From: a virus
Strand: one strand, 5' to 3'
Length of the DNA stretch: 64,000 nucleotides
Virus record (IMG/VR): IMGVR_UViG_3300031857_000053
Location: 43,267-107,266 of that record
Shown here: positions 8,101 to 43,369 of the stretch, piece by piece
Layout: each line of letters begins with the position of its first letter
Position numbering within the stretch: position 1 is the first letter of the stretch
Made by a program: the position numbers and the translations under genes
The notes under the pieces: model-generated
What the model was told of the DNA's origin: nothing
The model's database searches: none
What the model saw: the letters and a program-made list of their open reading frames with translations, nothing else

Positions 8101-10645
8101 AAATGTTATTGCTGATATAGATAAATCTCGAAAAACTTTATTAAAAAATTCTTATGAAAGATTTTTAAGATTAAGAAAGATGAATGATTTATTCAATCAG
8201 CTTTATGAGATGAAAGTTTTTTTAGATGAGAGAGGAATGCAAGATGTTTTAAATAATCGTGTTCCATCTATATTTTTTAATATTCCTAAAGCTAAAGATA
8301 GTATAACACCAGTATCTTTTGATTCTGAAAAATATAGACAGATCTTAGATTTATTTGAAAAATATGAACAAACATCTGGTAAGCAATTTGAAAATAAACC
8401 AATTGTTGAAGCAATTCCATTTATTAGTGAGACTATCAATTATAATATAGAGAATAGGGAAAAAGGAGAAGATAAAAGAACTTTAGCTGAGCATGCTGCA
8501 TATTGGGGATTTGATCCTGAGATGAAAACTATAACTTCAATTAAAACATTAGATGTTTTAAAAAAGATAGTTGATAGTCCTTATTCTACTTATAAAGAAA
8601 AAGCTTTAGCTAGAAGATTACTTACTATTGTTAAAGCTAATAGTGAAATAAAATTTGAAAAACTTTCACGTCCAAATAAAGCATTATATACCGATGAAGG
8701 AAAAATGGGAATGAGTGTAGATCCTAGATATTCATCTTCTGATTTTGGAATTACAAAAAACTTTTCATTACCTATTGAAGCAATTATTCTTAATACAGTT
8801 ATTAAGGATATTACAGCTTATGATATGTCAAAAAATCTTGCTTTTAAAAATGATGTTGCTAAATTATTTGAAGCAGCTAAAGAAGAATTTAAAAAGAATA
8901 GACCAGCGAATGCTACTTTATTTGGAGATAAAGTTGATTTTGAATTTTATGGTTTAAGAAATCAAGAAGATTTTGTAGCGGAAGCTCTTACTAATGATCG
9001 CTTTGCAACGTGGTTAAAAACTATTGATTATCAAACTACCGGTAAATCTGCGTGGCAAGAACTATTAGATATGCTTAGTCAATTCTTTGCAAAGATTTTA
9101 GGTATATCAAAAGATAATACTCTTTTAGATGAAGTAGTATATGTCGTTACTAAACATATTGATAAAATAGAAGGAGTTACTGAAGATAGTTTAGCTCAAG
9201 AAGCTAAATACAAAGCAGCAACTCAAGCTGGGACAAATGTTCCAGGTGGTATATCTAAAGATAGTACTATTAACGAACTTGCTGCAGCAGGTGTTTTAAA
9301 AGAACTTGTTGCTGATTACAAAAGAATTAATAGTGAGAGACAAGTTGTAGCTCCAGATTCTGTATACGATCCACTTTATGATCAGCGTCCAGAGTCAGAG
9401 CTTATTGAAACTGAAGGATTCAAAAGATATCTTGACTCTACATCAGCAAGTAATATTATTAGTGCTCACAATAGAAAGAAAGGTATTACTCCATCAACTA
9501 CAATAACTACTCCTACTACTACTCCTGTTTCTGATATAGAAGCTAAGAGAGCTGATATAGAAAAAAGAAGAAAAGAAAGTCTAAATGCTATTAAACAAAG
9601 ACCTAATGAAACTTTGTTTACAGCTCCTTATTATAAAGAAGGATATAATTTTAAACAGCTTCCTACAGACTCAGCTATGAGAACTGAAGCTGAAGAAAAA
9701 GAATATTATGAAATATTAAAAAACAATAATGCGTTAACTGATGTATCTATTCAAGTTAAAACTAGAGAGGAGGCTGAAAAATTAATCAACGCTAAATATG
9801 ATACAGAACTAGCTGCTTTAGAAAAAGCTCCTGTTACTACTGTTGATACAACACCAGTTAATAAAAGAACTAAAGAAAGACTTCTTACTAAAGGTTATAA
9901 TTATTCTGATATTGATAGTATGAATCAGCAACAAGCTGAAGCATTATTAGTAGAAGGATATACTAAGAAAGAAAAACTAGAAGCTATAGCTGCAGAAGAA
10001 GAATTGCAAAAACAAATTAAACGCGAAAAAGAATTACTTACTAAGGTTGAATTAATGGCATCTATTATAAAAGATATTAATGAAGCTGAATATTTAACTG
10101 ACCTTGCTGCTGTACAAAATAGAGTTTCAGATATTATTAATCGTACTCCAGGTGTTTTAGATATAAATGCAATAGAAAGAGGAATTGAGTCTAAGAAAAA
10201 ATCACTTAGTGCTAATATTGCTTTAGATAAAATGATTGTTAATGAGTTTATTAGATTAGATAACAATCAATTAGTAAAAGTAATTGAAATAAATAATAAT
10301 GGTATTAAAGTACAAACTACAGGAAAAATAGAAGATGGTGCTTCTCAAGTTGAATTTTGGATTAACAAAAAACAATTTGATAAAGATCAAAGAGAACCAA
10401 ATAAAAGATATGTTATGTATAAAGATCAACCAGGTATAGAAGAAGTCACAGGTATACCGGTAACTTCACAAGAAGATGTTGAATCTACAAAAGAGAATGT
10501 TACTAGTGCTAGAACATTAGTTTCTGATGAAGATTTACAAAATGAATTTAAAGAAGTAGAATCTCAAGAAATAGTTGATCTAGAAAAGGATTTTCTTGAT
10601 ACCTTAGATCAGTGTTTACCGGGTAGTCAACTTTCCATTTTTTAA
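5141..10645 (+). CDS. Giant virion cargo protein (1834 aa) with hydrophobic Gly/Ala segments and a degenerate zincin-like domain
   Basis: FGILGEFAAEEIALWGATALSGGALG and ENLAEGLQE segments. YGLRNQEDFVAEALTNDRF resembles a zincin C-terminal motif, but the HExxH is missing. Confidence 0.65.
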   Translation: MADVISEDINLSLPDPANLAASVAGGVMNPLLKESIDIDLPQPPPRYPVGVSATNMIPTQTNALTDSNSLIEQSNNSLATANQWARNPYQYGKLKTYNADSDGANFARYAAVPRVFKEQGFSLYRDNEALYNENATWWDYFKRSAGASWELFKTGFTDMLPWNAWDGKSSDLVAAKEMERWHAIGADSRSGVGSFINNMTVDSGYTFGILGEFAAEEIALWGATALSGGALGEVALTRTGKKIDDVIDALSIEKFRAKVNKAYDWMKSPDKMKDIYSYAKGTLKRAGKTLIPQTGSFIANDIIAAGKKGDLVFNMAKASKGFGAFYRDSRAVAAVLSEASLEGGSAELMVRDQLIDGFYDKNGRLPNDKEMSAIYSEAANAGRETYLWNLPALYISNQIVFETALKGFKPAAVFREELRTGLSGRLAFNEAWKKAGVKAWTTVEEGALQSFKNIFNPTTYKPKNLLRNTVGKFALYTKENLAEGLQEVYQDAVQKTMVDYYSARFTHPALSGSRSVWGEFAKNIGNPNLETFASGFLMGSMVQIPQKIAFNYLPKQFYKLTNRAEYDKNMALQQEHTDKVVDAMNYFTMGEKYYDSINENAVVQLNGNAEAQQANMAGDKKAFGDITDETEGNHFMTLLESGKLDILVDQFKDLKGLNKEALEEAFGPVDKSIAEDSYTFYQNRLDNMIKKSEQLKKLYETAEREIGDGPFHPSTVDGKKDPKLYEAMMQGAIAHKMAKRDFVLQNYSFYRTLQRVDSLTNNLVSNSELAKTSASDLMLATSPQLMVDEIAITKKLLEGYKTIEKDPDNKSKIQSLEERLEYLEELQSAIEGITVAQKLEPSRELGTQVKEIEDADKAARIDEGTVVKNKKGKEHKVSYVKKGDAYNSKGEKIGKLKDLDIVSQPEGKEEKDAMTYATERLFNAYSQWMKYSAKVNNNDNVTDRAIEKSFADFRDIYLLKQDSKFLGETIQTLLNPNYFRVYTERLRNVIADIDKSRKTLLKNSYERFLRLRKMNDLFNQLYEMKVFLDERGMQDVLNNRVPSIFFNIPKAKDSITPVSFDSEKYRQILDLFEKYEQTSGKQFENKPIVEAIPFISETINYNIENREKGEDKRTLAEHAAYWGFDPEMKTITSIKTLDVLKKIVDSPYSTYKEKALARRLLTIVKANSEIKFEKLSRPNKALYTDEGKMGMSVDPRYSSSDFGITKNFSLPIEAIILNTVIKDITAYDMSKNLAFKNDVAKLFEAAKEEFKKNRPANATLFGDKVDFEFYGLRNQEDFVAEALTNDRFATWLKTIDYQTTGKSAWQELLDMLSQFFAKILGISKDNTLLDEVVYVVTKHIDKIEGVTEDSLAQEAKYKAATQAGTNVPGGISKDSTINELAAAGVLKELVADYKRINSERQVVAPDSVYDPLYDQRPESELIETEGFKRYLDSTSASNIISAHNRKKGITPSTTITTPTTTPVSDIEAKRADIEKRRKESLNAIKQRPNETLFTAPYYKEGYNFKQLPTDSAMRTEAEEKEYYEILKNNNALTDVSIQVKTREEAEKLINAKYDTELAALEKAPVTTVDTTPVNKRTKERLLTKGYNYSDIDSMNQQQAEALLVEGYTKKEKLEAIAAEEELQKQIKREKELLTKVELMASIIKDINEAEYLTDLAAVQNRVSDIINRTPGVLDINAIERGIESKKKSLSANIALDKMIVNEFIRLDNNQLVKVIEINNNGIKVQTTGKIEDGASQVEFWINKKQFDKDQREPNKRYVMYKDQPGIEEVTGIPVTSQEDVESTKENVTSARTLVSDEDLQNEFKEVESQEIVDLEKDFLDTLDQCLPGSQLSIF

Positions 10646-10663
10646 TTAAAAAACTATAAAGAC

Positions 10664-13600
10664 ATGATTTGTAATTTAGCTAATAATGAATCTTATAAAC
10701 CTTTCCGAAAATATATCTTTAAAAAGTTATCTCTAGCTCCAGAAGGTTTTACATTAGAATCTTTTACTAAAGATATCTATAGAAAAGTATATGATAATAC
10801 TACTGGTACTCCTGAAGATAAACATGCTAATGCTATTAATCATGTTGCAATAGGAACTATATTTTTAAATCGTATTCAAGCATTAGAACCTTCAGTTTAT
10901 GATACTATTAAAGATATAGATTTTAATAAATTTATAAAACTTGTAAATAATATTAGTAAATCAGAACCTGATTTTTCTTCATTAGAAGAAATGTTAGGTT
11001 TGAAAAATAATCCTGTTGAAGAACTTAAAGAACTTAATGCTGCAGCTGCTGAATCTAGAGATAACAGTACAGCGGGTATACAGATGACATTATTTGAAGG
11101 TAGCGATATTAAAGTTAACGAAGAAGATGAACCAGCTGATACCACAAATAATAATATGGTAACTGCTACTGAAGAATATCAAGGTAAAGATACTGTTCAA
11201 GCGGATCAAGATAGAGAAACTATAAATATAGATAATCCTAAATCTCCAGATTATTATAAAGCGAATCCTTTATATAGATTTTATTATAAAGTTAAAAGAG
11301 GTGTTTTAAAATTATTACAAAGACCAGGAACTAATTTTGATAGTTCTCAAATTACTATTCCTTATAATGGAAAGAAAGGTGTATACTTAACAGTAATGAG
11401 TTCTAGTAAATTAAGTAGAGATGATTTTAAAGAAGATCCTACAATAGGAGGTAGCAATGATAAAAAGTTTATTTACGATGCTGGTGAACCAGTGTTTGTT
11501 TTAACTGATGTAGATGGTATTCCAGTTAAGTTTAATGAAGAAGGTCAATTTGATGAAAATGGTAAATTATCTTATCATAAATTTAGAAATATTTATTCAA
11601 CTCAAGTAAAAGATGGTAAAGTTTCTTTATACAAAAGTGCTAATCTAAATGCTTTAGATGATGTAAAAAGAGTAGATCTTTTAAAACAAAAATTAATGAA
11701 GCTTAATCCAGGGCTTAGTGAAAAAAATGCTAAAGCTCAAGCTGAAAAAACAATACTTGATCAACTTCAAATTATATATGATATTAGACAAGCTCTTAAA
11801 GCTAATCCAAATTTAATAGTTAAGACTGTTATAAATGGTGGTTCAATGGGAGCTGTAAAAAAAGATATGAGTGTCAAAACACCTCTTGAGAATTTAACAA
11901 TAGGTAATAGAGATTTTACTATTTATGCTGTAAAAAGTGATAGCGAAAATTCTGGATACACTTATACTAACACTGATGCTACAGGTTCTTATGATGTTGA
12001 AATAACTCGTCCTGATATTAGTCAAGTTGAAGGATTAACAGATACAATTGTTTCTATATTATTTGATAAAGGTATAAGTAAAGATAAAGGAGTTTCAAAA
12101 GCTATTACTGCTGAAACTAGAAAAGAATTATTACAAAATTATATATTTACTAGAACTGAAGGTTTAGATATGTTTGTTAATGAAGATGGTGGGTATACTG
12201 TTAAAATAGGAGGACAAGAAATTTATAGATTAAAAAATAAAAATTATACTTCAGTTGAAGAAGCTGCTCTTCTTGAAAAAAGAAAAAGTGCTGAAAAATT
12301 AGTTCGAGAATATTTTACTACGCTTGCTCCTCAAGCTGAGATCTTAGAAAAAGATCTTAATGATGTTGACATGAAAAATATAATTGAAGGAACTATTGAT
12401 AAAGTTAGAGATCAATTTAAAAAAGGATATGTTTTTTATAATACAGAAAATAAAAAGTATTATAGAATAGGTTATCCTATACATCATATTAATGCTAAAT
12501 ATCAAAATGCTACTTATCCTGGTTTAACTCTTTCTAAAGAAGGAAACAATACAATATTTACAATTGATCGTAATGCTTCATATAATAACTATATAAAGAA
12601 AAATTTTACAATACCTTTTGAGTTAAATGAGAGTGGAGAGATTCCATCTCTTAATGCTTTTTATACTTATGAGTATGCTGAGGGTGAATTAAATAAAATA
12701 TATAAGCCAGCTGAATCTACATCAGCTCAACCATCTACTAGTGTTAAACCTGCTACTAGAAAAACATACTCTGGGAAAGTAACTAAGTTGACACTTAATC
12801 AAATATTTGTATTTGGAAGTAATCCTGAAGGAAGACATGGTGCTGGTGCTGCTAAAGATGCTAAAGATTTATTTGGTGCAAAGTATGGACAAGGAAGAGG
12901 GATGCAAGGTCAATCTTATGCACTTGTAACTAAGAATCTTAAAGCTGGATTTGTTGAACCTAGCACAGGTATAACATATAAAAAAGCAGGAGAAAAGAGT
13001 GTTTCAAAAGAACAAATAATTGAAAACATAAAAGAGCTATATTCAGTTGCTAAAGAAAATACAAATAAAGAATTTTTAATACCTGATTACTCTAAAAGCA
13101 ATCTTAATGGTTATACAGGTCAAGAAATGGCAGATATGTTTAGTGCTGCTGGACCTATACCAAATAATATTGTGTTTCATAAAAACTTTGATAAATTAAT
13201 TACTACTCAACCATCTACTAGTGTTAATCCATTAGTAGAAGCAGGAATTAAACCTTCTGATATGTTTGGTAATGCTGCTAAAGATATTCAGATGGCATCT
13301 GAATCTACTCAGTTTATTGGATTTGGTACAATAATGAAAGAAGGTAATGTATCTTCTACAGATAAATATGCTAAAGCTTGGGGTACTAAAGCTAATACAG
13401 GAGTGTATACAGCTGGTGATACTATAATGGTATCAGGAAGTGGTAACTTTGGTAGAGGAGGTGTTGATAAAACTGTTGAAGCACAAGCTATTAGAAAAAC
13501 ACTTAGTGAAAAATATAAACCTTTATTAGATAAGGCTATAGAAGCAGGTGCATCTTTTAGAATTGGTAATCAATATGCAAAAGGTAATTTGTCAGATCAA

Positions 13601-16600
13601 TTAGTTGCAGATTATTTACAAAAAAAGGGTTATACTGAAGAAAAACTTAATGGTTATTCTAGATGGGTATCTCCTACCAAAACTACTCAACCATCTACTA
13701 GTGTTAATAAAGGTGTAGAAATATCTTCTAATGCTAAAGGTTTAGCAGCGGCACTCACTAATCCTACAGAGTTAGCTAAATCAAAAGGTAATATTAAACA
13801 ATCTTATCCTATATATTTTCAATGGTTAGATAAAAATGGAGAAGTAAGAGATTCAAACTTTAAAGATGTTGAACAAGCTTATCAAAAATTAAAAGATAAT
13901 TCTGAAGCTAAAACAAAACCTACTAAAGAAAATAGTAATAATTATAAACTAATGGTAGATTTGATAAAAGCTAAATTAGAACAACATCCCAGATTAGTTT
14001 TAGAAATAACTAAACAAGGAGGTTCAGCTTGGATATTATCTTCTACACATCAACCAACTAAACAAAATACTGTTTGGGAAACAGGTGGACAAAACTGGTT
14101 TATTCAAGCTCTCAATGATGCTTATTTATCTACACAACCATCTACTAGTGTTTCTGTAGATACTAAAGCTGATATTACTTTACCTACTACACCTGATCAA
14201 CAAAATACTAATTCTATTGATCAAGCTCTTAATATTATTGATGATGCAATTAATAATTTTGATAAACTTAAAGCTTTAAAACTTATTGATCAAAAAGCTA
14301 CAGTAGAACAAATAGAAGCAGCTAAAAAGTGGTGGGAAAACCATCCTATGTCTAGTAAAATTCCGCTCTATGTTTTATTCAATGCTGTTAATACTAAAAA
14401 TCCAACATCAATTGCTAATTGGACATTAGATGGTATTACACTATATCAAGGTGCTGATTACTCTGATTTGTATCACGAAGCATGGCACGGGTTTACTCAG
14501 ATGTTTTTAACTAAAGAACAGAAAGAAAATCTTTATAAAGAAGTAGGAAAAAAATCTGGTGGTTTTACAGATTATAAAGGAAACTATACTTTATTTAAAG
14601 ATGCTAAACCAAAACAACTAGAAGAATATTTAGCTGAAGATTTTAGAAATTATATGTTATCTGGAGGTAAGAAGATTGCTGGTAAAGCTCCTGTTAGAAA
14701 TAAAATTTTTAAGTTTATTGCTGATATATTAGAATGGTTATTTGGAAATCTTACAAGAGAACAAATAGCTAATGGTACAGAAAGCTTAAGCACTATTCAT
14801 GACTTATATGAAAAACTTCGTGTAGGTAATCTTAGTGAGTATACTTTCTCTCAAAGCAATGCTCAATATGATAAGCTTAGTAAAGGAGAGATTTTAGCTA
14901 CAAGAAATACTGATAAACCTGTTGACGATATAGATACTAAAAACTATATCTTAAATATGGTTGATTCTTTTTTATCTCAATATGTTGATAGAGTTTCTGA
15001 AGGAAAAAGAAAAAAATATATTGCTAATGCTAGACTTCAAGCTGAAGCTAGAGGAGAAACTTTTGTAGAATCTACAGCAGAACTTTCATATAAATATACC
15101 GCAACATTATTAAAAACAGCAGAAGGTAGAAAGTTAGCTTATGGTTATGCTCAAGAAATGATTAAAGCTATTCATGATGGACTTGTATTATTACAACAAA
15201 ATGAAAGTAGTGAAATTATTCGTGCTAATAGAAAAAAAATAATTGATACTTTAAGTTGGACTTATAATAACTTTGGAGATATAAATAATCTTAAAAATAA
15301 TAAGATAGATAAGGAGGGTAGATTTCAAAATGTTATTGCGTTTCATACTGCTAAAAGTAGATTATTTACTAAACAAGAAAAAGAACTTTTCTTTAGTGAA
15401 GATGCGCTTAATGAAGAAGATTTATTTTTAATTGGAAGAGATGGTTTAGGAAGTGTAGGTGGTAATGAAAAATCATCTAAAGAATTAGCATCAGAAGATA
15501 TCCTTATTATGATGAATAGTTTACATGAGGTAGATGCTAAAGGTAATACTATATATGTAGAAGGAACTGAAGTTGAAATAGAAACTAAACAAGGTGTTAA
15601 GCTTAAGATAGGTGTACCTAAGCTTCAAGATTTTGATGTTACTTGGAATATTCTATCTAAGAAATTAGAAAATAATCAAGATGCTGAGAACATGTACGCG
15701 ATCTTAAGTGATCTTGCAAAGTCAAAACCTAATCTTCCATTTAAACAATTATTAAATAAACTTGGTCCAATAAAAACTGCGGGATCAGCAGAGTTTAGAT
15801 TATGGACTAATTTTTGGCAAACTTTTAATTTATCTAGAGTTGGTTTAGTATATACTAAAGTTAATATAACAACTAAAACAGAGAGTAAAGGTGAGGTTAA
15901 AGAATTAAATTTTGATAATTGGGAATTTACAGCTAGACCTACTAAAGCTACCACTAGTATAAATACAATTAAAAAAAATTGGGATTATGCTTTTAGAATG
16001 AAAGATAAAGGTGATTATATCGGTAAAGATTCTCTTGGACAAAATTATCTTTTATTAGATAAGATTTTAGAAGATTTTAAAGATAATATAAAAGGAAAAG
16101 AATTTGAGTTTTTTAAAGCAATAGGTATAGATTTTGATACAAATAATGAAGATATTCTTAAAGAAGTTTCTTCTAAAAATTCTTTAGATACAGCTAAAAG
16201 AATTTATAATATTATTAAAGCTTTATCTAATGCTAAATATAAAGAAGAACCTCTTATAGGAAAACCTAAATATACTATATATGCTCCATCTCAATTATTT
16301 AAAGAAATATATGAAATAGGTGAAGATAAACAATATGTTTGGAAAGATAAATTTGAAATAGATTCTCAAGGTAATAGACGTAAAGTAGGAACTGAAAAAA
16401 AATTTTTAGTAGATATAGGTTATAAAACATCAGGAGAAGGAACAAGATTTGATAACTTAGCTGAAATTCAAGCTGAGTATTCTGATAAATGGGGAACTAA
16501 TCAAGTTACAAATGCAGAAGGTAATACTCAATTTGATTTAACATTAAATAATTTTCTTACTGTTTTAAAGAATACACTTAATCAAGTACAAGATGTAAAA

Positions 16601-19600
16601 GATGCTAACGGCAAAGTTATTATACCTGCATATAAAGTTTTAATTAGTCTTCCATGGATGAGTAATTTAGATGTAGATAAAAATCCAGATGCTGAGTCTT
16701 CTATTTTATTAAATTCTTTATTTGATCTTAATAAAAATAGTACAAAATATGGTGAAAGAATAAAAGATGAAAAAACTAAATCTGGATATGTAGAAGTACA
16801 ATTAAAAAATCTTAGTGGAGTAGCATTTAATAAAGATGATGTTTATGATGAAAAGAAATCTACTTCTTTATTTAATTCAGATCCTTTAACAAAACTAGTA
16901 GCAGATTTTCATACTGGTTTGATGAATGGAAATTTTGAGTTAATGCGTCACTCAGATAAAGGAACATCTTTTAGTTTCTTTACTACTTCTTTAGATAAAA
17001 AGAATATTAATAATAGAAATAAATATTTATATGTTGATACTGCAGATTTTGTTACAAGTTTAGGAACAAAGAATGCTATTAATAAATATATTTTTCCAAC
17101 TTTAAATTCAGAATTTAAGCGAATAAAAAAGTTTAGAAATATTAAACAAGCAGTAGAAGATGCTAGAAAAGAAACTGATCCGGAAAAAAAGAAGGATATG
17201 TTTAAAGCAATTGGTAATACTGATTTTAATTATATAGAAAAAGGATCTTCTTTTGTAACATTTCAAGGTGTTTTATCTCCAGAAACTAAAGTAAAAATAC
17301 TTAAGCAACTAGATAAAAATAGTTTAACAGAATACTTAAATACTCCAGAAGGTTTTGAATTAAAAGTTGAAATTGGAAAAGATATTCAAAATTATTTTAA
17401 TAATCAAATTGAAGCTGTAAGTAAAAAGTTTCCTGTTAGAAGAAGTGGTGTTAAACTTATAAGTGGTGATATTATTAAAAAAATAAAAGATCATGTTACA
17501 GCTAATTATACTGAAGGATTAGGTCTTTCACAAACAGGAAAAGATATACTTAGAAATACTGATTTTAATAAAGTAGCTTTAAGATCTTTTGTAATTAATT
17601 CTTGGATACATAATACTGAAAGTATCAAATTAGTTTATGGAAACCTTGCTCAATATAATATGGCTAAGGAAGAATTTCATAAGAGAAATGCTGGTTCAAG
17701 TTCTACTGGTACACTTTATAGAACTGATAAAGCTGCAATGGATTATGTAAATAATATTCTTAATGGTGGTGATACATATGCTAAATCAATAGGACAAACT
17801 AATAGATATTATGATGGAACTCTTAATACAGCAATTGTACAAGATAGTGTTCAAAGATCTGTTTATATAGAAGATTATTCTAAAGACTTAATTGCTGAAC
17901 AATTAAAAAGAAATGGTGGAAATCAACGAGAAGCTGAGAAAAAAGTTTTTGGTTACGATGAAAAAAATAATAAAGTTGGTACTCTAGAAAAACCAATTAA
18001 GGGTGGATTAATTACAGCATATACTGATATGAAAGAAGGAGATGGTCAAGGTTGGGTAACTTTTGATTCATATAGAATGCTATTAAACTTAGAAGGTAAG
18101 TGGTCAGATTCACAAGAAAATTTATATCAAAAAATAGTAAAAGGTGAACAAGTTTCTAGTGCTGATATAGCTTTCTTTTTTCCTCCACAAAAGTTACAAT
18201 ACTGGGGACCTCTTGGTAACAGATTATCTGGTAAAGCTGCAATAGGACAAAAGATTAATTCTGATGTACAGCTTACAGCTATGCACAAGTTTTCTTTAGT
18301 ACCACTTATTCCTACTGTAATTAAAGATAAAAGAATTCAAAAGCTCCACGATAAGATGGTTCGAGAGCAAGTGGATTATGTAACATTTGAATCCGGATCA
18401 AAGATTAGTAATATTACAAGTGCTGAAAAGTTTGGAGAGAATGGCAAACAAACTTTTGATCTTTTTTACGCAGATAATAAGCGTAATATTAGTGAGGAAC
18501 CATTTACAATCAATCCTATTTATGTAAACTATTTAAAGAATCAGTTAGAGATAGCACCTAAGTTTAAAAAGAAAGTAACTTTTTCTACTCAGCTTAGAAA
18601 ACTTATTGAAGATGGTTTAGTAGAGAATGGTGTGCCAATTGATTTTGGAAGAAATTTATCTCGTGAAAAAAGAATTGAAGCTTGGGATGCTATTACAACA
18701 GAAGATGCTAAGATGGCCGCATCTCCTAAGTATAAGATCTATAAAACATATGAGAATAAATTAAAGAAACTTACCGAGCTTAAAAGAGATCAACTTTTAG
18801 AAGAGATGGGTTGGAAGATGGTGAATGGTAAACCAGTTGGTACAATAGAGAACTTAGTTAGATTTGTTAAAGCTGAATTAGAAAGACAAAATTTAGGAGA
18901 TCATGAAATAGATTTCTTAGATGTAGTTGATGGTGGTACAAAGCTTAAAACAGATGCTTCATTTTCTTTGTCTGCAGATAAGATTGAAAAGTTACTTAAT
19001 TCTATTGTAGTAAATAGATTGATCAAACAAAAAATTAATGGTGAAGCTTTAATCCAAGTATCTACTGCTGGTTATGAAAATAATGAAGCTTGGGATGCAG
19101 CAAGAGGTGCTACTGAAGAAGAGTTAGAAAAGTGGGGAACAGATGATCTTCCTACTTATAGAAAAGGAAAAGATGGAATTACTAAAGCAATGAAAGTGAA
19201 AGTTGCTTTACAAGGAAAGTTTTTATCTCTACTTAATCTTAATCATAATGATGGTCAAACTATAGCTGTTTATGATATTGTTAATGGTAAAAAAGTTCTT
19301 AATCTAGAATCATCTAGAACAAGACTTAATTCCATGATTAAAAATGAAGAGTGGTTAAATAAAGAAAATCATCGTAAGATGATTACTATGGTTGGTGTTC
19401 GTATTCCAGTACAAGGATTAAATTCTATGGAGTTTATGGAAGTATACGAATTCTTACCAGAGGAAGCAGGTAATATTATTATACCTCCAACAGAGATTGT
19501 AGCTAAATCAGGAGCTGACTTCGATATCGATAAGCTTACAGTGATGATGCCTAATATAAAAACCAAAATAAATAAAGCTAAAATTACTAATGCTTTATTA

Positions 19601-22600
19601 AGAGAACTTGGTGAAAAAAATCCAACTTTAGATTTTAGTAGAGATAATATTAATATGCTACTTGATTTTGAAAAAGGATCTGGTGGCGCATATACTCTTA
19701 CCGAAGAAGATTTAAATACACTTCGTATTCTAGAAGAAACTAGTGAAGTAAGTGTAGTTTATCCTACTGGAGATAATTCTATAGAAGGATTAGAGAATGA
19801 TCTTATTTGGAATATAAAAGATATTTTAGCATTGCCGGAAAACTTTGTTAATCTTATTACACCTAATAGTACTGATACAGTTCAACCAATTGCTACTAAA
19901 CTTGCACCTTTAGTTAAAGATTATGATCAGATGCAGAAAACAGCTGGTGATATTACTACTTTATCTAAAGAAGATCAAGCTTTATTAAATGAGAATCCTA
20001 ATGTGATGGAAGGAACTAGAGTATTGGAAATACTTTATAATATTTCTAAGCAACAGTATAATCAGATTGGTAAAGAGACTTTAGGTATTGGAGCTGTAGA
20101 TAATACTTTCAATATTCTATTGAATAGAATTGGAGCTTATATGAATGCTTATGCTACTGTAAAATCATTTAATGGTAAAAATAAAACTACAATTAGACAA
20201 ACATTAAAGTTTAAACATAATACTCTTAATATAAATGGTCAAGATGTTATTTCTTTATCGCATTTATACGATAATAATGATTTAAATAGAGTTTCAGATA
20301 TTATCTCTCAAATGATGAATGGTTGGGTGGACGTTGCAAAAGATGCTTGGATTTTTGATATTCAAGGTAACAAGGATCTTTCTCCTACACTTTTGTTTAT
20401 GATTCAAGCGGGTGTCTCAATAGAGAATGCTATTTATATGGTTTCTCAACCTATGGTAAGAGAATATATAAGATTAAAGAAGACCGCTCAAAGTAGTGTA
20501 TCAGATGTTATTACTGATGTTGATACTAAATATCCAGGTTTTGCAGCAAAGAAAATGATCATTGATAAATACTTTTCACAAGATGCAGATTTTGGTTCTC
20601 AAATTGCTGCAGCAAATGATATTATAAATGATGAAGTACGTGAAAAAAAATTAAATGCGATCTATGGTAATGTTAATGTCGCTAATACTAGTGCTGAAAT
20701 TATAAATAGAGTTTTTGGTGATAATGATATTGATACTAAAAAGATGGAAGAGAATATTCAAAAATATTCTGCTGCTGAAAAAAATGGAGAAGATACTAAT
20801 AAATTATTGTTTAATGATGAATATCAAAAAGCTATATTTTTACATTTCTTACAGATAGAACAGATGGGATCTGCTCTTACTAATGTTAAAAAGAATATGA
20901 ATTTTGACACTAAAAAAGATGCTAGTATCTATGAGGCACAAAATAGAATGGTTATGATTGATGCTCTTTCAAAAGAAGATCGATTCCCATCAAAGATGAT
21001 AGATAAACTTATTACAGATTCTCCTATATCAAGTTTCTATATACAAGAATTTCAAACACAGATTTGGGAAAAATTATTACCACTTCGAACTAATGAAGTA
21101 TTTAATAAATGGTTAAGTGGTAAGATGGGTGATCAAGACTTTAAAAATTATGTTGAAGAGAATTTTGGAGAAAATATGATGGAAAAAGCTATTCTTTCTT
21201 TGAGAAATAATCTTGTACCATATATATTTCAAAATGAACTTAAACAATTTGATTTAAGAACTTTAGATGGATATAAAGGAAACATAGTTGAAATAAGTGA
21301 AAAAGGAGAAACAGAACAAGAAAATCTTACTAAAAAACAACAAAAAGAAGGAGTTAGTGTTCTAAGTATTGGAGCTTTCTTTAAAGATGGAAAAATGTTT
21401 ATTGATAAAAAAAGTTTAGATAATCAATATAACAATGCTTCTTATTTAGGTAATGAAAATAGCACTTATAAAGAATTAGGATTAGCACCAGTTAGTGTTG
21501 GAACTTTTAGTTCTTTAAGCGAATATCATCACTTTGTAGTAGAGAGAGAATATCTTAGAAATCTATATAAGAATACAGATAATGTTAAAGATAATATAGA
21601 ATACAAAGAAGCTCTTAATGATGCTTTTGAAAAAAATCCAAAAGGAGAAGAAAGTGAAGATGCGTATAAAAAAAGAATAAGTAAAATTGCTTTTGAAAGT
21701 TTCTTAAGAGATAAAGCTTTAGATAATATATTTAATAATACAAAATTATTTACAGGGAATAAAACAGCTGCAGATAAATTAGGTTATATAAAATCTCAGT
21801 ATAAAGATCTTTTACAAACATATCCTGTATTACAAGTTCTTAATCCTTTATCTACAATATCTGCCGGTAAACTTTATTCTAATATACAATTACAAGATAA
21901 CTTAGATGATTCAGAAAAAGTTAATTCTTATTATAAAAATATTAGAGATCTAGCAGATCCTACCGTGGTAAAAGTTCCTGGAGATCCTGAAGCTAATAAA
22001 TATATAAGTGATTTCTTTACTAGTTTACCTATTATTGGAACATTACAATCAGGTTCTAATACTAAAACTAGATCTTCTTTTACTAGATTAATGCCTTATG
22101 ATTTATATCTAAGATTAATTGAAAAACCTGCTCAAAAATATGTTGAAAATATGAGTGATCTTTTATTAGATGTTTATTATTATAAGTGGTCTCAGCAAAA
22201 TTCAATCTTAAATAAAAATAAAAATAAGTTTGAAGATTATTATATTACTGAAATTACTTTAGATCGTCTTTTAAAAAGTTCTAGAAAAAATCTTGATAAA
22301 GTAGAAATAGAAAAACAAATTAGAGGTTTACAAGATAAAAATCAAAGATTTGGATTAAGAGAAACTGAAGATATTTTTTATAAACAACCTAGTGGAGCAA
22401 GTATACTTGATACATATAAACTACTTAAAAGAGATGATAAAGAAACTGATGAAAGCTATAATCCTAGAAAAGTTAAATATATGCGCGAGTTATTAGAAGC
22501 TAATCCTGATAAGATTTTTGTTTATAATAATGAGAAAGGTCTTGATAGATCTATACCTAAACAGGGAACATCAGATAGGTTATTTAGAAATCAAGGGCAA

Positions 22601-23038
22601 TCTAATGCTTTTGGATTGAATACTTATAATCAATATAATCTTACAGAAACTACTTTTATTAAAGATGTTGATGGTGATGTTAATCCTAATTTTAAAATAG
22701 ATTTTGATGCTCAAGTAAAAGAATTACTTCGTCTTCAAAATGAAGAAGGAAAAGAAATAGTTTTTCCATCATCTGGATTTTTACAAGAACAAATGGGTTA
22801 TCAATTAGAAGAATCTAATTCTTTAGGTAAGAATACTTATAGTTCTATAGTAGAAAAAAAATTAGGACAAAAAACTTACGAATATGCTTCTCAAGTTTTA
22901 TTTGAGAAATTTGGCTACGTTAATAGAAATTACGATATTACACCCATTGGAAAATTAGTAATAGGAGCTAAACAAAAAGAAAGTAAATCTATTAGTGATG
23001 AAATGGTTAGAGATTTAATGTCACATTGTTATTCATAA
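10664..23038 (+). CDS. Virion-packaged single-chain DNA-dependent RNA polymerase (phi14:2 gp66-like) with N-terminal accessory domains and zincin
   Basis: RIPVQG...KSGADFDIDKL catalytic motif (DFDID at 19517-19531), EEFHKRNAG, DGQGW and NGWVDVAKD segments. HEAWH at 14474-14488 plus EEYLAEDF. 4124 aa. Confidence 0.9.
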   Translation: MICNLANNESYKPFRKYIFKKLSLAPEGFTLESFTKDIYRKVYDNTTGTPEDKHANAINHVAIGTIFLNRIQALEPSVYDTIKDIDFNKFIKLVNNISKSEPDFSSLEEMLGLKNNPVEELKELNAAAAESRDNSTAGIQMTLFEGSDIKVNEEDEPADTTNNNMVTATEEYQGKDTVQADQDRETINIDNPKSPDYYKANPLYRFYYKVKRGVLKLLQRPGTNFDSSQITIPYNGKKGVYLTVMSSSKLSRDDFKEDPTIGGSNDKKFIYDAGEPVFVLTDVDGIPVKFNEEGQFDENGKLSYHKFRNIYSTQVKDGKVSLYKSANLNALDDVKRVDLLKQKLMKLNPGLSEKNAKAQAEKTILDQLQIIYDIRQALKANPNLIVKTVINGGSMGAVKKDMSVKTPLENLTIGNRDFTIYAVKSDSENSGYTYTNTDATGSYDVEITRPDISQVEGLTDTIVSILFDKGISKDKGVSKAITAETRKELLQNYIFTRTEGLDMFVNEDGGYTVKIGGQEIYRLKNKNYTSVEEAALLEKRKSAEKLVREYFTTLAPQAEILEKDLNDVDMKNIIEGTIDKVRDQFKKGYVFYNTENKKYYRIGYPIHHINAKYQNATYPGLTLSKEGNNTIFTIDRNASYNNYIKKNFTIPFELNESGEIPSLNAFYTYEYAEGELNKIYKPAESTSAQPSTSVKPATRKTYSGKVTKLTLNQIFVFGSNPEGRHGAGAAKDAKDLFGAKYGQGRGMQGQSYALVTKNLKAGFVEPSTGITYKKAGEKSVSKEQIIENIKELYSVAKENTNKEFLIPDYSKSNLNGYTGQEMADMFSAAGPIPNNIVFHKNFDKLITTQPSTSVNPLVEAGIKPSDMFGNAAKDIQMASESTQFIGFGTIMKEGNVSSTDKYAKAWGTKANTGVYTAGDTIMVSGSGNFGRGGVDKTVEAQAIRKTLSEKYKPLLDKAIEAGASFRIGNQYAKGNLSDQLVADYLQKKGYTEEKLNGYSRWVSPTKTTQPSTSVNKGVEISSNAKGLAAALTNPTELAKSKGNIKQSYPIYFQWLDKNGEVRDSNFKDVEQAYQKLKDNSEAKTKPTKENSNNYKLMVDLIKAKLEQHPRLVLEITKQGGSAWILSSTHQPTKQNTVWETGGQNWFIQALNDAYLSTQPSTSVSVDTKADITLPTTPDQQNTNSIDQALNIIDDAINNFDKLKALKLIDQKATVEQIEAAKKWWENHPMSSKIPLYVLFNAVNTKNPTSIANWTLDGITLYQGADYSDLYHEAWHGFTQMFLTKEQKENLYKEVGKKSGGFTDYKGNYTLFKDAKPKQLEEYLAEDFRNYMLSGGKKIAGKAPVRNKIFKFIADILEWLFGNLTREQIANGTESLSTIHDLYEKLRVGNLSEYTFSQSNAQYDKLSKGEILATRNTDKPVDDIDTKNYILNMVDSFLSQYVDRVSEGKRKKYIANARLQAEARGETFVESTAELSYKYTATLLKTAEGRKLAYGYAQEMIKAIHDGLVLLQQNESSEIIRANRKKIIDTLSWTYNNFGDINNLKNNKIDKEGRFQNVIAFHTAKSRLFTKQEKELFFSEDALNEEDLFLIGRDGLGSVGGNEKSSKELASEDILIMMNSLHEVDAKGNTIYVEGTEVEIETKQGVKLKIGVPKLQDFDVTWNILSKKLENNQDAENMYAILSDLAKSKPNLPFKQLLNKLGPIKTAGSAEFRLWTNFWQTFNLSRVGLVYTKVNITTKTESKGEVKELNFDNWEFTARPTKATTSINTIKKNWDYAFRMKDKGDYIGKDSLGQNYLLLDKILEDFKDNIKGKEFEFFKAIGIDFDTNNEDILKEVSSKNSLDTAKRIYNIIKALSNAKYKEEPLIGKPKYTIYAPSQLFKEIYEIGEDKQYVWKDKFEIDSQGNRRKVGTEKKFLVDIGYKTSGEGTRFDNLAEIQAEYSDKWGTNQVTNAEGNTQFDLTLNNFLTVLKNTLNQVQDVKDANGKVIIPAYKVLISLPWMSNLDVDKNPDAESSILLNSLFDLNKNSTKYGERIKDEKTKSGYVEVQLKNLSGVAFNKDDVYDEKKSTSLFNSDPLTKLVADFHTGLMNGNFELMRHSDKGTSFSFFTTSLDKKNINNRNKYLYVDTADFVTSLGTKNAINKYIFPTLNSEFKRIKKFRNIKQAVEDARKETDPEKKKDMFKAIGNTDFNYIEKGSSFVTFQGVLSPETKVKILKQLDKNSLTEYLNTPEGFELKVEIGKDIQNYFNNQIEAVSKKFPVRRSGVKLISGDIIKKIKDHVTANYTEGLGLSQTGKDILRNTDFNKVALRSFVINSWIHNTESIKLVYGNLAQYNMAKEEFHKRNAGSSSTGTLYRTDKAAMDYVNNILNGGDTYAKSIGQTNRYYDGTLNTAIVQDSVQRSVYIEDYSKDLIAEQLKRNGGNQREAEKKVFGYDEKNNKVGTLEKPIKGGLITAYTDMKEGDGQGWVTFDSYRMLLNLEGKWSDSQENLYQKIVKGEQVSSADIAFFFPPQKLQYWGPLGNRLSGKAAIGQKINSDVQLTAMHKFSLVPLIPTVIKDKRIQKLHDKMVREQVDYVTFESGSKISNITSAEKFGENGKQTFDLFYADNKRNISEEPFTINPIYVNYLKNQLEIAPKFKKKVTFSTQLRKLIEDGLVENGVPIDFGRNLSREKRIEAWDAITTEDAKMAASPKYKIYKTYENKLKKLTELKRDQLLEEMGWKMVNGKPVGTIENLVRFVKAELERQNLGDHEIDFLDVVDGGTKLKTDASFSLSADKIEKLLNSIVVNRLIKQKINGEALIQVSTAGYENNEAWDAARGATEEELEKWGTDDLPTYRKGKDGITKAMKVKVALQGKFLSLLNLNHNDGQTIAVYDIVNGKKVLNLESSRTRLNSMIKNEEWLNKENHRKMITMVGVRIPVQGLNSMEFMEVYEFLPEEAGNIIIPPTEIVAKSGADFDIDKLTVMMPNIKTKINKAKITNALLRELGEKNPTLDFSRDNINMLLDFEKGSGGAYTLTEEDLNTLRILEETSEVSVVYPTGDNSIEGLENDLIWNIKDILALPENFVNLITPNSTDTVQPIATKLAPLVKDYDQMQKTAGDITTLSKEDQALLNENPNVMEGTRVLEILYNISKQQYNQIGKETLGIGAVDNTFNILLNRIGAYMNAYATVKSFNGKNKTTIRQTLKFKHNTLNINGQDVISLSHLYDNNDLNRVSDIISQMMNGWVDVAKDAWIFDIQGNKDLSPTLLFMIQAGVSIENAIYMVSQPMVREYIRLKKTAQSSVSDVITDVDTKYPGFAAKKMIIDKYFSQDADFGSQIAAANDIINDEVREKKLNAIYGNVNVANTSAEIINRVFGDNDIDTKKMEENIQKYSAAEKNGEDTNKLLFNDEYQKAIFLHFLQIEQMGSALTNVKKNMNFDTKKDASIYEAQNRMVMIDALSKEDRFPSKMIDKLITDSPISSFYIQEFQTQIWEKLLPLRTNEVFNKWLSGKMGDQDFKNYVEENFGENMMEKAILSLRNNLVPYIFQNELKQFDLRTLDGYKGNIVEISEKGETEQENLTKKQQKEGVSVLSIGAFFKDGKMFIDKKSLDNQYNNASYLGNENSTYKELGLAPVSVGTFSSLSEYHHFVVEREYLRNLYKNTDNVKDNIEYKEALNDAFEKNPKGEESEDAYKKRISKIAFESFLRDKALDNIFNNTKLFTGNKTAADKLGYIKSQYKDLLQTYPVLQVLNPLSTISAGKLYSNIQLQDNLDDSEKVNSYYKNIRDLADPTVVKVPGDPEANKYISDFFTSLPIIGTLQSGSNTKTRSSFTRLMPYDLYLRLIEKPAQKYVENMSDLLLDVYYYKWSQQNSILNKNKNKFEDYYITEITLDRLLKSSRKNLDKVEIEKQIRGLQDKNQRFGLRETEDIFYKQPSGASILDTYKLLKRDDKETDESYNPRKVKYMRELLEANPDKIFVYNNEKGLDRSIPKQGTSDRLFRNQGQSNAFGLNTYNQYNLTETTFIKDVDGDVNPNFKIDFDAQVKELLRLQNEEGKEIVFPSSGFLQEQMGYQLEESNSLGKNTYSSIVEKKLGQKTYEYASQVLFEKFGYVNRNYDITPIGKLVIGAKQKESKSISDEMVRDLMSHCYS
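12728..14152 (+). repeat. Four identical 18-bp direct repeats CAACCATCTACTAGTGTT (QPSTSV) delimiting three in-frame domain modules
   Basis: Copies at 12728-12745, 13208-13225, 13688-13705 and 14135-14152. Periods are 480, 480 and 447 bp. Confidence 0.95.
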
Positions 23039-33822: not shown

Positions 33823-34860
33823 TTAAAGTAAGACATTGGTTGTTGCTAGCTCGTATGGAAGATCATATCTATTATTTGAATAGTGCCAATCTGCTTTCTT
33901 AAGTTCTTTCTCTAGGTTCTCCTCCCAAGCTTTCATTGTATTCTCTGATACACCAAAGCAATAACTTTGTTTGTATTTATCAATAACAATAAAAGTAAAC
34001 TTTATATCCCACTCATTAGGATCAAGACCATTTGCTAATAGAAATGTTTCCGTGACTAGTTTTTTATACAATGCTGCTTGTATCCATAGTTTGTAAAACT
34101 CTACGGTTTCAGGAAACTCGGATAATGTTTTAGATGTGGTTTTTAAGTCATTAATCTTAATGCTTTTATTTGTGCTATCTATAACTAGATTATCTAGAAT
34201 TCCTTTTAATCCGGTATTGCGAGACTCTTCCTTTTCTATTTGGATACCAAACTCATTGAATACTTGGCTATTTTCTCCAAGATTTAATTTTCCTAAGAGG
34301 GTCATTATTTCTTCATTTTCTTTGAGTTGCTCTACAATATCTACACATGCACTATGAGTTGGAAGATCTACGATACTTTTATCTTGCCGATTAAATAAAA
34401 ATTCGAAGTATTCTTGATGAGAGTCTGTTATAATTTTTTCTATTCTTTGCTCATCTGTTTTGAGTGATTGATAAAGGTTTACTTCTTTGAGGATATCAAT
34501 AATAGCATCTTTGTGATCTGATAATTGATTCTTTGCGGGCTCTTCGAATCCACCTACAGTAGTAAGATTAAGTTGAAGTTGGAATACTTGTTCGATAACT
34601 TTTTTTGGATTTTCGCTTGGTTGATTTCCCGGTAGAAGTATAAACTGATTTTTAAAATTATCAGGATCCAACAACAAGCAATGGATAAGTTTACCCATTA
34701 GCGTTGCTGAAGTTTCTACATCTTCCTTTTGTCCTAATATATAATGGTTATAAAATAGATTAGGTGAGTATAAAAGTTTATTTAAACTTGAATAACTAAA
34801 ATAAAAATCTTTTAGATAAAAGTTTTCTTCTGCTGTTTTTTGTTCTATTGTTTTATTCAT
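33823..34860 (-). CDS. PD-(D/E)XK exonuclease (RecB/ExoVIII-like)
   Basis: FSYSSL, GKLIHCLLL, KGILDNL...DLKTT, YKLWIQAALY. Confidence 0.85.
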   Translation of the reverse strand: MNKTIEQKTAEENFYLKDFYFSYSSLNKLLYSPNLFYNHYILGQKEDVETSATLMGKLIHCLLLDPDNFKNQFILLPGNQPSENPKKVIEQVFQLQLNLTTVGGFEEPAKNQLSDHKDAIIDILKEVNLYQSLKTDEQRIEKIITDSHQEYFEFLFNRQDKSIVDLPTHSACVDIVEQLKENEEIMTLLGKLNLGENSQVFNEFGIQIEKEESRNTGLKGILDNLVIDSTNKSIKINDLKTTSKTLSEFPETVEFYKLWIQAALYKKLVTETFLLANGLDPNEWDIKFTFIVIDKYKQSYCFGVSENTMKAWEENLEKELKKADWHYSNNRYDLPYELATTNVLL

Positions 34861-37971: not shown

Positions 37972-39183
37972 TTAGTTTAATTTAATTGTTACACCTGGTA
38001 GGTGATCTGTTTCTTTTGATTTACTTGATAATACCCATAATACTTTATTTGCTTTAGTAGAGGGAGCGGGTGCTTCTCCATCTGTAAGATAGATTAAACA
38101 AGAATATTTTTTAGTATTCTCTGCATAATAATCCATAACAGGATCAAAACTAGTTCCTCCTCGGCCATATATTTTCTTTTCAGCTTTTGGATTATACTTT
38201 TCAATCTTTTGTATAGCAACATCAGCATGTGCAACAGTAACTTCAGCACCTGTTTTAAAGATATGATGGATCTCTTGCATAAACTCAGTGAGCTCATCAT
38301 CACTAACTGATCCTGAAGTGTCAACACCTACAAGAACATGCTTTTTATATTTTATCTTCAGACCTGGATTATCTTCATATCTTTTATTGAATTTTCTCCG
38401 TGTCTTTTTAGTGTAGGTTTTGATATTACCACCAGCAAATCTTCTAAGGTAACCTCTCCAATCAAACTTAGGTGGTTCCGTATAATTAATTTCATCTAGT
38501 ATATTACATATCTCACCTGGGATTGTTCCTCTACTTTTTTCTATCTGTTCTTTTAACTCATTTAAAAGAGTTTGAGTATGTTTATTTAGAAGCTTCTTTG
38601 TAGCTTCATCCATAGGTTTACCATCTTTATTTTCCCAGTCATGTTGTGGTAGATTTACTTCTGTTTCATCTCCATTCCCATCGCTTAACACTATTGTTAC
38701 TCCTTGAGACTCTAACATTGAATTTAGATTAGGACAACTTTTATTCTTTGAAGCTTTCATAAGCTCATCATAATAATAGTGTGTACCTTTTTTCTTTTCT
38801 AGATTTAACTCAGGAAATAAACTAAGGAGCATGCCACCCGGAGGTAACCAATCTTCATCTATATACTGATTAATTTCTAAATCCATTGCTATGTTTCTTA
38901 CTTTAGCATCTCTTAATCCTTCATAGTTGGTAAGGTGAAAGAAAGCAATATGTAATAGCTCATGTTTTAATAATCCTTTTCTATGGTCACTTGATAAAGT
39001 TTTCCAAAACTCAGGATTAATTTCAAGATTATATGTAATACCATTTATATATACACCAGCTGTTTCTAGCTTATTATTAAACTTTCTTTGTAACATAATT
39101 AAGAATAGTCCATAGAAAGGTTCCTTAAGCATAAGGTCTTTAGATGTCTTTGCTAAACTATCTACTAGTTCTTGATTTGTCAT
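37972..39183 (-). CDS. DUF2201-type metallopeptidase + VWA domain protein
   Basis: HELLH, NIAMDLEIN, MIDAS DTSGS, GRGGT, LTDG. Confidence 0.88.
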   Translation of the reverse strand: MTNQELVDSLAKTSKDLMLKEPFYGLFLIMLQRKFNNKLETAGVYINGITYNLEINPEFWKTLSSDHRKGLLKHELLHIAFFHLTNYEGLRDAKVRNIAMDLEINQYIDEDWLPPGGMLLSLFPELNLEKKKGTHYYYDELMKASKNKSCPNLNSMLESQGVTIVLSDGNGDETEVNLPQHDWENKDGKPMDEATKKLLNKHTQTLLNELKEQIEKSRGTIPGEICNILDEINYTEPPKFDWRGYLRRFAGGNIKTYTKKTRRKFNKRYEDNPGLKIKYKKHVLVGVDTSGSVSDDELTEFMQEIHHIFKTGAEVTVAHADVAIQKIEKYNPKAEKKIYGRGGTSFDPVMDYYAENTKKYSCLIYLTDGEAPAPSTKANKVLWVLSSKSKETDHLPGVTIKLN

Positions 39184-40363: not shown

Positions 40364-40876
40364 TTATAAATTATTTCTTCTAGCATATTCTGCCATTAAT
40401 ACTGCGTCTATTAAACCATCGTGAGGAACTGTGGATCTATCTCCAAAAGTTAATTTAAGCTCAGGAAAAATCCTTTTAATAGCCATTAAAGCCATTGCTT
40501 TAGTATCTCTTACTTGTTTCTTTCCTGTCTTACTTGATTTGGTAATTTGATCAATACCTTGAAACATTTGTTTTTGCCAATCTACTGCTCTTACTTTAGT
40601 GTAAGGTATACTTTGACAAATACAACTCATTTCTACAGCACCGGATTGTTCACCCATAGAAAATGCTGTTTGCTTTGAGCTACCAAAGATTACTCCTAGC
40701 TTTTCAAATACAACATATGATTGATATCCTACTTGATTTAATGCACCGGGTATAGAAGAATAATCAAGTTCTGTTTTAATCATTGGCATTTTTTCTACTA
40801 TTATTTTACCATCAGGAAATATAGAAGCTATTGCTCCGTGTTTTCCTATATCGATTCCGATATATACTTTACTCAT
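40364..40876 (-). CDS. ruvC: RuvC-like Holliday junction resolvase
   Basis: YIGIDIGKHG, VVFE, HDGLIDAVLMA. Confidence 0.8.
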   Translation of the reverse strand: MSKVYIGIDIGKHGAIASIFPDGKIIVEKMPMIKTELDYSSIPGALNQVGYQSYVVFEKLGVIFGSSKQTAFSMGEQSGAVEMSCICQSIPYTKVRAVDWQKQMFQGIDQITKSSKTGKKQVRDTKAMALMAIKRIFPELKLTFGDRSTVPHDGLIDAVLMAEYARRNNL

Positions 40877-42607: not shown

Positions 42608-43369
42608 TTAGTCAATATAAATTTTATCCCAATAAGTTATTAATCCTTCATCTGTCATCTCAGAGACAACAATTTCTTTGTTCCGTAAATGTTCTGGTCT
42701 TGCTCCACAAGATACTTCATCTGTAGTTTTAAAACTCAAAATATTTTGATCACCTTTTCTGTAAAGATAACCAATAGCATCAGATTGTGAACTGGTAATT
42801 CTTTTAAGTTTACCTGTTAGATCTAGATCCATACTATTAAAATCAGTTCCATTTTTCTCTAATAATACATCTTTGATATGTCCTATTAGAATTATTCTTG
42901 GAGCTAATGTTTTAATATACTCTATGATCTTGGTAAAAGCTTCTCTTAGCCATGGATATCCTGCTCCGTTGGGCATATTAAGTATTGTTCCATACTTAGG
43001 TTTCCCTTCTGTGAGCCAATTCTTTCCCATTGGTGTAGCTTGATATAACTTTTCAGCATAAGGAAGACACATTTCTTCTAAAGCAGTAATAGTATCTACC
43101 GCAATATATTTATATGGATTTCCACTTGCTTTGATTTCTTCTCCGTAATCTCTTATATCTTCCCAACTATTGATTTCTACCTTGAGTGCGTCTAAATACT
43201 TGGTTCCTTTTTCAAGATCCATTATTAAACAATTATCAAGTTGAGAAAATAAACTTGTTTTACCAACTTTTGGCTTGGAGAATATAATAAGATTAGAAGG
43301 ACTCTTTTGAGAAGCTGCTATCTTTGCTTTTGGTAATTCTATTACCCGTTTTTTTTCTTTTTCACTCAT
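42608..43369 (-). CDS. AAA_24/Sak4-like ATPase
   Basis: SKPKVGKTS, DLEKG, IAVDTIT, IGH. Confidence 0.8.
   Translation of the reverse strand: MSEKEKKRVIELPKAKIAASQKSPSNLIIFSKPKVGKTSLFSQLDNCLIMDLEKGTKYLDALKVEINSWEDIRDYGEEIKASGNPYKYIAVDTITALEEMCLPYAEKLYQATPMGKNWLTEGKPKYGTILNMPNGAGYPWLREAFTKIIEYIKTLAPRIILIGHIKDVLLEKNGTDFNSMDLDLTGKLKRITSSQSDAIGYLYRKGDQNILSFKTTDEVSCGARPEHLRNKEIVVSEMTDEGLITYWDKIYID

Follow-up and report, generated by a model that had tools for sequence, protein, structure and literature searches.

Phage counter-defence repertoires turn over fast, and it calls for explanation how whole enzyme domains can enter or leave one essential protein of the virion while that protein stays intact. 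The question is raised by a giant open reading frame (ORF) of 4124 amino acids (aa; 10664..23038, + strand), which, according to its motifs and the homology of its RNA polymerase (RNAP) core, encodes a crAss-like virion RNA polymerase (vRNAP) of the polyvalent protein type. It lies in a 64,000-nucleotide (nt) stretch of viral DNA, hereafter the window, that covers positions 43,267 to 107,266 of the IMG/VR record IMGVR_UViG_3300031857_000053 (107,266 bp, 91% complete). Behind its N-terminal region, the ORF carries four copies of one short sequence, here called the joint, which part three domains, here called cassettes. The joint is conserved at the DNA level, breakpoints between phages lie at it, and cassettes and backbones are incongruent, including in the lineage of this phage. 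Among related phages, whole domains are gained, lost and exchanged at the joint, which looks like a built-in means of reshuffling a toolkit that is probably injected. The reading preferred here, to which a probability of roughly 0.7 is assigned, is that the joint is a shared, frame-keeping stretch of short homology that serves the exchange of cassettes by general recombination.

Three cassettes between four joints

The 18-mer CAACCATCTACTAGTGTT matches the window at exactly four places, all on the + strand and without mismatch, namely 12728..12745, 13208..13225, 13688..13705 and 14135..14152. These copies are spaced by 480, 480 and 447 nt from start to start, and all of them are in frame within the giant ORF, where they encode QPSTSV. 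The four identical in-frame repeats claimed in a preliminary description of this DNA are therefore confirmed, in position, period and frame. No extra match with up to three mismatches is present in the window; by chance 0.08 copies would be expected, and four were reached in none of 100 shuffles. The whole virus record likewise holds only these four joints (up to two mismatches), all within the giant ORF. Conservation reaches slightly past the 18-mer, as ACTACT precedes copies 2 and 3 and AA follows three of the four copies. Megablast of the region gave no match among GenBank phages. Neither a promoter nor a terminator was found at the joints, promoter-like sites being fewer than in shuffles, and Rfam returned two sub-threshold chance matches only, neither of them at a joint. 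At aa 3908, KQPSGAS was considered as the possible scar of a single former joint and was dropped, since it does not match the joint as DNA.

The three modules parted by the joints are mutually unrelated (BLASTP E > 3; in-register nucleotide identity of 31-35%), as had been proposed, and the accompanying proposal that each is one complete domain is also borne out: the first spans a full family profile and the other two fold compactly in models. Cassette 1 (12746..13207, + strand) is an A1S_2505-family N-terminal domain, which scores 98.3 bits against NCBIfam NF049995 (cut-off 45) over positions 1-109 of the 109 in the profile and matches phrog_2072 with an E-value of 4.8e-30. Its homologues, stand-alone or fused and 50-56% identical, occur in 290 GenBank phage records. 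Cassette 2 (13226..13687, + strand) is modelled by AF2 as a compact single domain with a Rossmann-like alpha/beta fold (pLDDT 86.5, pTM 0.85). Its best structural matches are generic methyltransferase-like folds (Z <=5.6), and searches with Pfam, PHROGs, NCBIfam, Atlas, a PDB sequence profile, Foldseek and VIA-align yielded just this generic Rossmann-like resemblance and no convincing relative.

Cassette 3 (13706..14134, + strand) is likewise modelled as a compact single domain (AF2 pLDDT 81.1, pTM 0.81). In a wide VIA-align search of 48,161 chains, the top three matches are all NADAR proteins, 8bau (Z 7.9, root-mean-square deviation 3.1, 111 aligned), 2b3w/YbiA (Z 7.2) and 8bat (Z 5.2), followed by a next row at Z 3.4, and the Atlas lead is NADAR/Phage_30_3 (score 0.89). 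PF08719 gave no match at E <=1, the PDB sequence profile search was empty, and Foldseek against the PDB found nothing at E <=0.001, so that the NADAR match comes from the wide VIA-align search alone. Because the fold matches but the Pfam model and the profile search do not, the cassette is described as a divergent NADAR-fold domain, on the strength of its structural model, and its activity is a predicted one.

The equality of both 480-nt periods could be taken as the mark of a tandem duplication, of which the repeats would be leftovers, or of an assembly artefact. The modules, however, are unrelated both by sequence and by fold, and the same joint recurs, next to other cassettes, in more than 40 contigs that were assembled independently, which renders either origin vanishingly improbable.

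Conservation of the joint as DNA

An exact scan of IMG/VR for the 18-mer, a search that the preliminary description had proposed, located it at 50 sites in 43 contigs, which are partly redundant (e.g., L018/L020 and L003/L035). Each of the 50 sites is in frame (QPSTSV) at a domain junction of a long ORF, nearly all are preceded by T or TT in the peptide, and the sequence on either side of the joint is unrelated. About two thirds of the loci are homologous to the vRNAP backbone of the window, at only 22-35% aa identity. A position profile built from 49 distinct sites defines a core of about 24-27 nt, (A)CT ACT followed by the 18-mer and RAA, directly outside which the information drops to background. 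Genomes of bacteria and archaea totalling 596 Gb do not contain the 21-mer, and among the vRNAP relatives L044-L053 (31-35% identical) no other repeated linker of at least 15 nt was found.

The preliminary description had held that identity extends to synonymous positions. A degenerate scan that left any third base free (ACN CAR CCN TCN ACN AGY GT) returned 105 stretches, of which those outside the phage group are chance matches, in short ORFs of GC-richer contigs. Within the phage group, 45 copies are exact, and six loci, which hold four distinct sequences, differ by one or two synonymous changes. Exact copies thus make up about 87%, against 1.9% expected from the codon usage of the same giant ORFs, and the catalytic DFDIDK motif, taken as a control, is written in seven nucleotide versions among nine copies. 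The commonest joint variant is non-synonymous: CAATCATCTACTAGTGTT (CAATCA.., QSSTSV), the S-type joint as opposed to the P-type of the window, is found in 23 further IMG/VR contigs, at like junctions and ahead of the same cassette families. Because exact copies are far above the codon expectation and the commonest variant is non-synonymous, the constraint acts on the DNA of the joint. The synonymous sites of the joint are near-invariant across phages, its commonest variants change the peptide, and it does not behave as a linker kept as peptide with free synonymous variation.

Arrays are mostly pure for either the P or the S allele, four being mixed. L160, which lies on the same contig as L122, carries six identical S-type joints between 6136 and 8952 and a seventh with one more change. 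In L163, a homologue of the A1S_2505 cassette of the window (EPTTRKTYSGKVTKL..) follows an S-type joint and stands behind the upstream family ALAEVVEQLR, which precedes five different cassettes in other contigs.

A different account would put the protein first: the joint would be a flexible linker and/or a cleavage site for the zincin or a head protease, its identity as DNA would follow from codon bias and from hitch-hiking with cassettes that had spread recently, and the shuffling would be a matter of ordinary illegitimate recombination. Such an account draws on the presence of TTQPSTSV(K/E) at every domain border, on a HEAWH motif just after the array (14474..14488, + strand; aa 1271), whose position marks a presumed zincin-type metallopeptidase domain, and on the autoproteolytic release of domains proposed for polyvalent proteins (Iyer, Burroughs, Anand, de Souza, Aravind 2017; PMC5512222); synonymous changes are also somewhat enriched among the few variants. 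Codon usage, however, predicts exact copies in 2% of cases, far from the frequency observed, and non-synonymous variants are common, with changes of S to G, V to I and V to E besides the P to S of the 23 contigs. Many homologous cassettes lie behind unrelated or decayed linkers, and therefore the peptide is not required. Hitch-hiking in turn fails to explain the identity, since joints are still identical where the cassettes have diverged to 60-75% nucleotide identity. As the frozen synonymous sites stay unexplained by it, a role of the peptide is insufficient, and this account is considered quite improbable; a linker or zincin cleavage site is possible as an additional function alongside the role of the DNA.

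Joints as breakpoints between phages

When the sequences of 170 aa on either side of the joints are clustered, one upstream family is seen to lead into different cassettes, and one cassette is seen to stand behind different upstream families. All-against-all blastn comparisons reveal cassette-sized patches of 400-800 nt, 92-99% identical, that are shared by contigs which do not align elsewhere, for example 99.2% across 503 nt between L014 and L036. Patches at least 90% identical between joint-bearing contigs have 87 distinct internal ends, of which 55 coincide with a full or half joint, where chance would predict 0.9%. Many of the other ends are located in joints that are partial or decayed, e.g., ACTCAACC.., and the break points vary within the full and partial elements. 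In the pair L009 and L038, two joints are flanked by backbones that are 88-91% identical on either side, and the cassettes enclosed by these joints differ.

The lineage of the phage itself displays the same incongruence. No close relatives of the N-terminal domain were found in IMG/VR, and a scan of metagenomes supplied one, contig L148. It is 93% identical at the nucleotide level to window 5930-12719, which includes nearly all of the N-terminal backbone region ahead of the array (10664..12727, + strand), and this identity ends 9 nt before joint 1. L148 lacks the first two modules: past the break, a decayed joint (QSSQV) leads directly into its NADAR cassette. That cassette is 74% identical to the one in the window and 89% identical to that of the unrelated L142, while cassette 3 of the window is 89% identical to a cassette of L137/L138. 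Cassette 2 of the window aligns with L122 at 90% nucleotide identity exactly from joint to joint, whereas the backbones of the two share short aligned stretches only, at about 37-38% aa identity. In the more distant L044, L046 and L051, the array is absent and the alignment restarts at aa 1158-1163, that is, at joint 4. The same three modules are thus not kept in the closest relative, L148 being without modules 1 and 2 and holding another NADAR allele. Together with the near-invariant synonymous sites, this supports in substance the earlier proposal of a junction, acting as DNA, at which domains are added, removed or shuffled.

A second small variable patch interrupts the 93% identical backbone shared with L148, where about 230-280 nt are unaligned (window 9567-9799, L148 3662-3939) inside the upstream ORF of 1834 aa. 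In other phages, homologues of cassettes 2 and 3 also occur on the C-terminal side of the RNAP core.

Ten of the flanked cassettes of this pool were compared with Pfam, which recognised an AlkB-type 2OG-Fe(II) oxygenase, DUF7831 twice and a cpYpsA/SLOG domain; the oxygenase, matched over the full profile, occupies one whole joint-to-joint interval. From these matches it follows that the cassettes are whole domains, of NAD/ADP-ribose or nucleic-acid-repair type. Pool cassettes are located at L039:7787-8512, L017:1382-1861 (- strand), L014:587-1066 and L032:8173-8604, and several recurrent ones belong to no family, such as those that start with KEGVSELFESNPELAN, KGFQGYQGGFEN and KPTIDLSREW. Many enzymes of the pool are probably aimed at host defences that work through NAD/ADP-ribose or modify nucleic acids, and the cassettes of the window may accordingly be viewed as putative counter-defence enzymes. 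The words effector and injected, used of them in the preliminary description, would follow from the crAss-like homology of the vRNAP and from the types of domain.

The polymerase, its genome and a possible route of exchange

The body of the giant protein follows the array. The HEAWH region is conserved in relatives, and Pfam has no match for aa 1164-2163; the N-terminal part of the backbone aligns weakly with L044, L046 and L047. Further on, GADFDIDK (aa 2950; 19511..19534, + strand) provides the DxDxD catalytic motif of RNA polymerase. A tblastn search with aa 2550-3249 matched 66 phage records, all crAss-like (from Bacteroides and Cellulophaga, and uncultured cr phages), in genes annotated as putative RNA polymerase, with 22-29% identity and E-values down to 8e-12, and IMG/VR relatives of the vRNAP are 31-35% identical across more than 2000 aa. 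The RNAP core had no phmmer match among PDB sequences at E <=0.01. The RNA polymerase of phi14:2, gp66, is reportedly carried in the virion and enters the host by ejection, and by homology the same may be presumed for this vRNAP. Like a polyvalent protein, the ORF unites A1S_2505, NADAR-fold and alpha/beta domains with an RNAP; zincin domains are a hub of such proteins and are also fused to N4-type vRNAPs (PMC5512222).

Two more giant ORFs, both joint-free, flank the vRNAP gene on the + strand, as in the crAss transcription block, one of 1834 aa (window 5141-10645) and one of 2293 aa (window 23042-29923). Around position 30000, GC and AT skew reverse sign where the coding strand switches, from a + strand virion and transcription block to a - strand replication block, and in the last 4 kb of the window G+C climbs to about 0.38.

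According to the preferred reading, exchange by homology, the joint would be an in-frame element of about 24-27 nt, (A)CT ACT CAA CCA TCT ACT AGT GTT RAA, encoding TTQPSTSV(K/E). Self-contained cassettes, parted by joints, would be insertions that stand behind the N-terminal region and ahead of the zincin-RNAP body, and the element would be common at the DNA level to a pool of AT-rich crAss-type phages with very divergent polymerase backbones. A crossover inside a joint could replace, insert or delete a whole domain, and the ORF would survive it intact because the joint always stands in the same frame at domain borders. Such crossovers would depend on homology and could arise by single-strand annealing or by a switch of template, whether in mixed infections or between direct repeats in one genome. 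Joints may stay letter-identical because only identical joints continue in exchange, whereas those that leave the pool would decay to ordinary linkers rich in Q, P, T and S.

The phage's own machinery could plausibly assist these crossovers. Candidates, all on the - strand, are a Sak4-like single-stranded-DNA-annealing protein (42608..43369; phrog_124, E 4.1e-30), an Exonuclease VIII-like nuclease (33823..34860; phrog_412, E 5.2e-23) and a Holliday-junction resolvase (40364..40876; phrog_1770, E 8.2e-21). Their connection with the joint is putative, as are the enzymology as a whole and the delivery of the cassettes with the polymerase. Tyrosine (PF00589) and serine (PF00239) recombinases gave no match in the 107-kb record, in which controls were positive. 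No conserved hairpin is present at the joint, the folds of the four copies being inconsistent (z from -2.9 to +0.7), and the complement GTAGA is not enriched downstream of it (8 of 49 sites against a baseline of 10%). Of 17 multi-joint contigs, 13 are homogeneous for the P or S allele, where 7.4 would be expected (P ~0.004). The lack of a recombinase and a hairpin, the annealing genes, the homogeneous arrays and the spread of the patch ends together favour homology-dependent exchange.

The main alternative is a reader of the sequence, such that a dedicated nuclease, a homing-type enzyme or an unrecognised recombinase would recognise the ~24-nt joint, making it a true in-frame "domain integron" that loads and unloads injected counter-defence enzymes on demand, with the joint peptide possibly also cleaved by the zincin. 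The conservation of those ~24 nt would suit such an enzyme, as it is extraordinary, sharply bounded and inclusive of synonymous sites, and so would the existence of two alleles, each otherwise frozen and array-homogeneous as enzyme-site pairs would be. The replication block does contain a gene for an HNH-family protein of 403 aa (37972-39183, - strand; phrog_1314 "HNH endonuclease", E 5e-63), though nothing ties it to the joint. Apart from the missing Tyr/Ser recombinase and the missing hairpin, to which the lack of a conserved inverted repeat is to be added, the patch ends are scattered within full and partial joints instead of marking one fixed cut, and co-occurrence with the joint has been established for none of the genes. 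A sequence-specific reader is thus judged unlikely.

Several points nonetheless weigh against exchange by short homology. It is deduced from sequence comparison, no recombination event having been seen directly, and the contig counts overstate the number of independent lineages because of the redundancy mentioned above. Among homologues of cassettes 2 and 3 that were sampled without bias, most junctions have a different linker or a decayed one rich in Q, P, T and S, frequently with remnants of TQP; the joint is therefore not required for the placement of a cassette, and is kept in only part of the population while it decays elsewhere. The homogeneity of P and S alleles could reflect population structure instead of mechanism, and 18-27 nt of homology is at the low end for efficient annealing by known phage systems. 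Finally, selection of the evolvability type on the identity of the joint is a weak force, so that its near-perfect conservation could instead mean that a sequence-specific reader exists.

Should exchange by short homology be correct, the joint would be a simple genetic device for the horizontal transfer of domains between phages whose backbones are 22-35% identical. Synonymous recoding of the joint would halt exchange, and exchange networks would track the P and S alleles. Searches for the joint list candidate injected enzymes (A1S_2505, NADAR, cpYpsA/SLOG, AlkB-type oxygenase, DUF7831 and others), and its design could be copied for modular engineering of phages in laboratory strains.

Among known systems, the polyvalent proteins of phages and conjugative elements (PMC5512222) resemble the present protein in being giant, in combining an N4/crAss-type vRNAP and a zincin-type peptidase with unrelated enzyme domains of the conflict type, in the high variability of their architecture and in their presumed delivery with the DNA. 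What was described there are protein architectures, whereas here a junction fixed as DNA is the breakpoint of exchange; in that paper the words "linker" and "shuffling" occur 0 times and no nucleotide-fixed junction is described, while for one polyvalent system a parallel with polymorphic toxins is drawn. No paper on a DNA-fixed linker in crAss phages or polyvalent proteins was found in the literature.

In polymorphic toxin loci, a short conserved border (VENN ahead of CdiA-CT, PxxxxDPxGL in Rhs) gives the homology for the in-frame recombination of modules. In those loci a single C-terminal tip varies, immunity genes are paired with it, and the same genome also carries silent orphan cassettes. 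Here, in contrast, tandem internal cassettes have a joint on both sides, neither immunity genes nor stored cassettes are present, and exchange would take place between phage genomes. Minicassettes of the Neisseria pilE/pilS system also exploit short conserved segments that guide frame-keeping homologous exchange. That process is intragenomic and RecA-dependent and supplies variants of one protein from silent copies; unlike the joint, it does not swap unrelated domains between genomes.

With integrons (IntI, attI/attC and promoterless gene cassettes), the array shares ordered, interchangeable cassettes, a repeated DNA site and a common pool. It differs from them in having neither an integrase nor an attC-like hairpin, in that its cassettes are protein domains in one frame and not separate genes, and in that recombination is probably homology-dependent. 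The term integron-like, applied to the locus earlier, consequently holds as a functional analogy, and fails as regards the machinery, given the absence of a Tyr/Ser recombinase from the 91%-complete genome and of a conserved hairpin.

Other phages have exchange points of their own. The "His boxes" of T-even tail fibres are short conserved stretches that flank variable modules and mark points of exchange, and are kept mainly as peptide. PeSLs are promoter-stem-loops between the early genes of T4-type phages, reportedly described by Arbiol et al. in 2010; they are intergenic, carry promoters and mark exchange points between related phages. His boxes act within one functional protein, whereas the joint is frozen at synonymous sites, and in distinction from both it is intragenic and frame-locked and would shuffle enzyme domains that are whole and mutually unrelated, in a protein presumably packaged in the virion. 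The finding here is the junction itself, its conservation at the DNA level and its role as the breakpoint of exchange.

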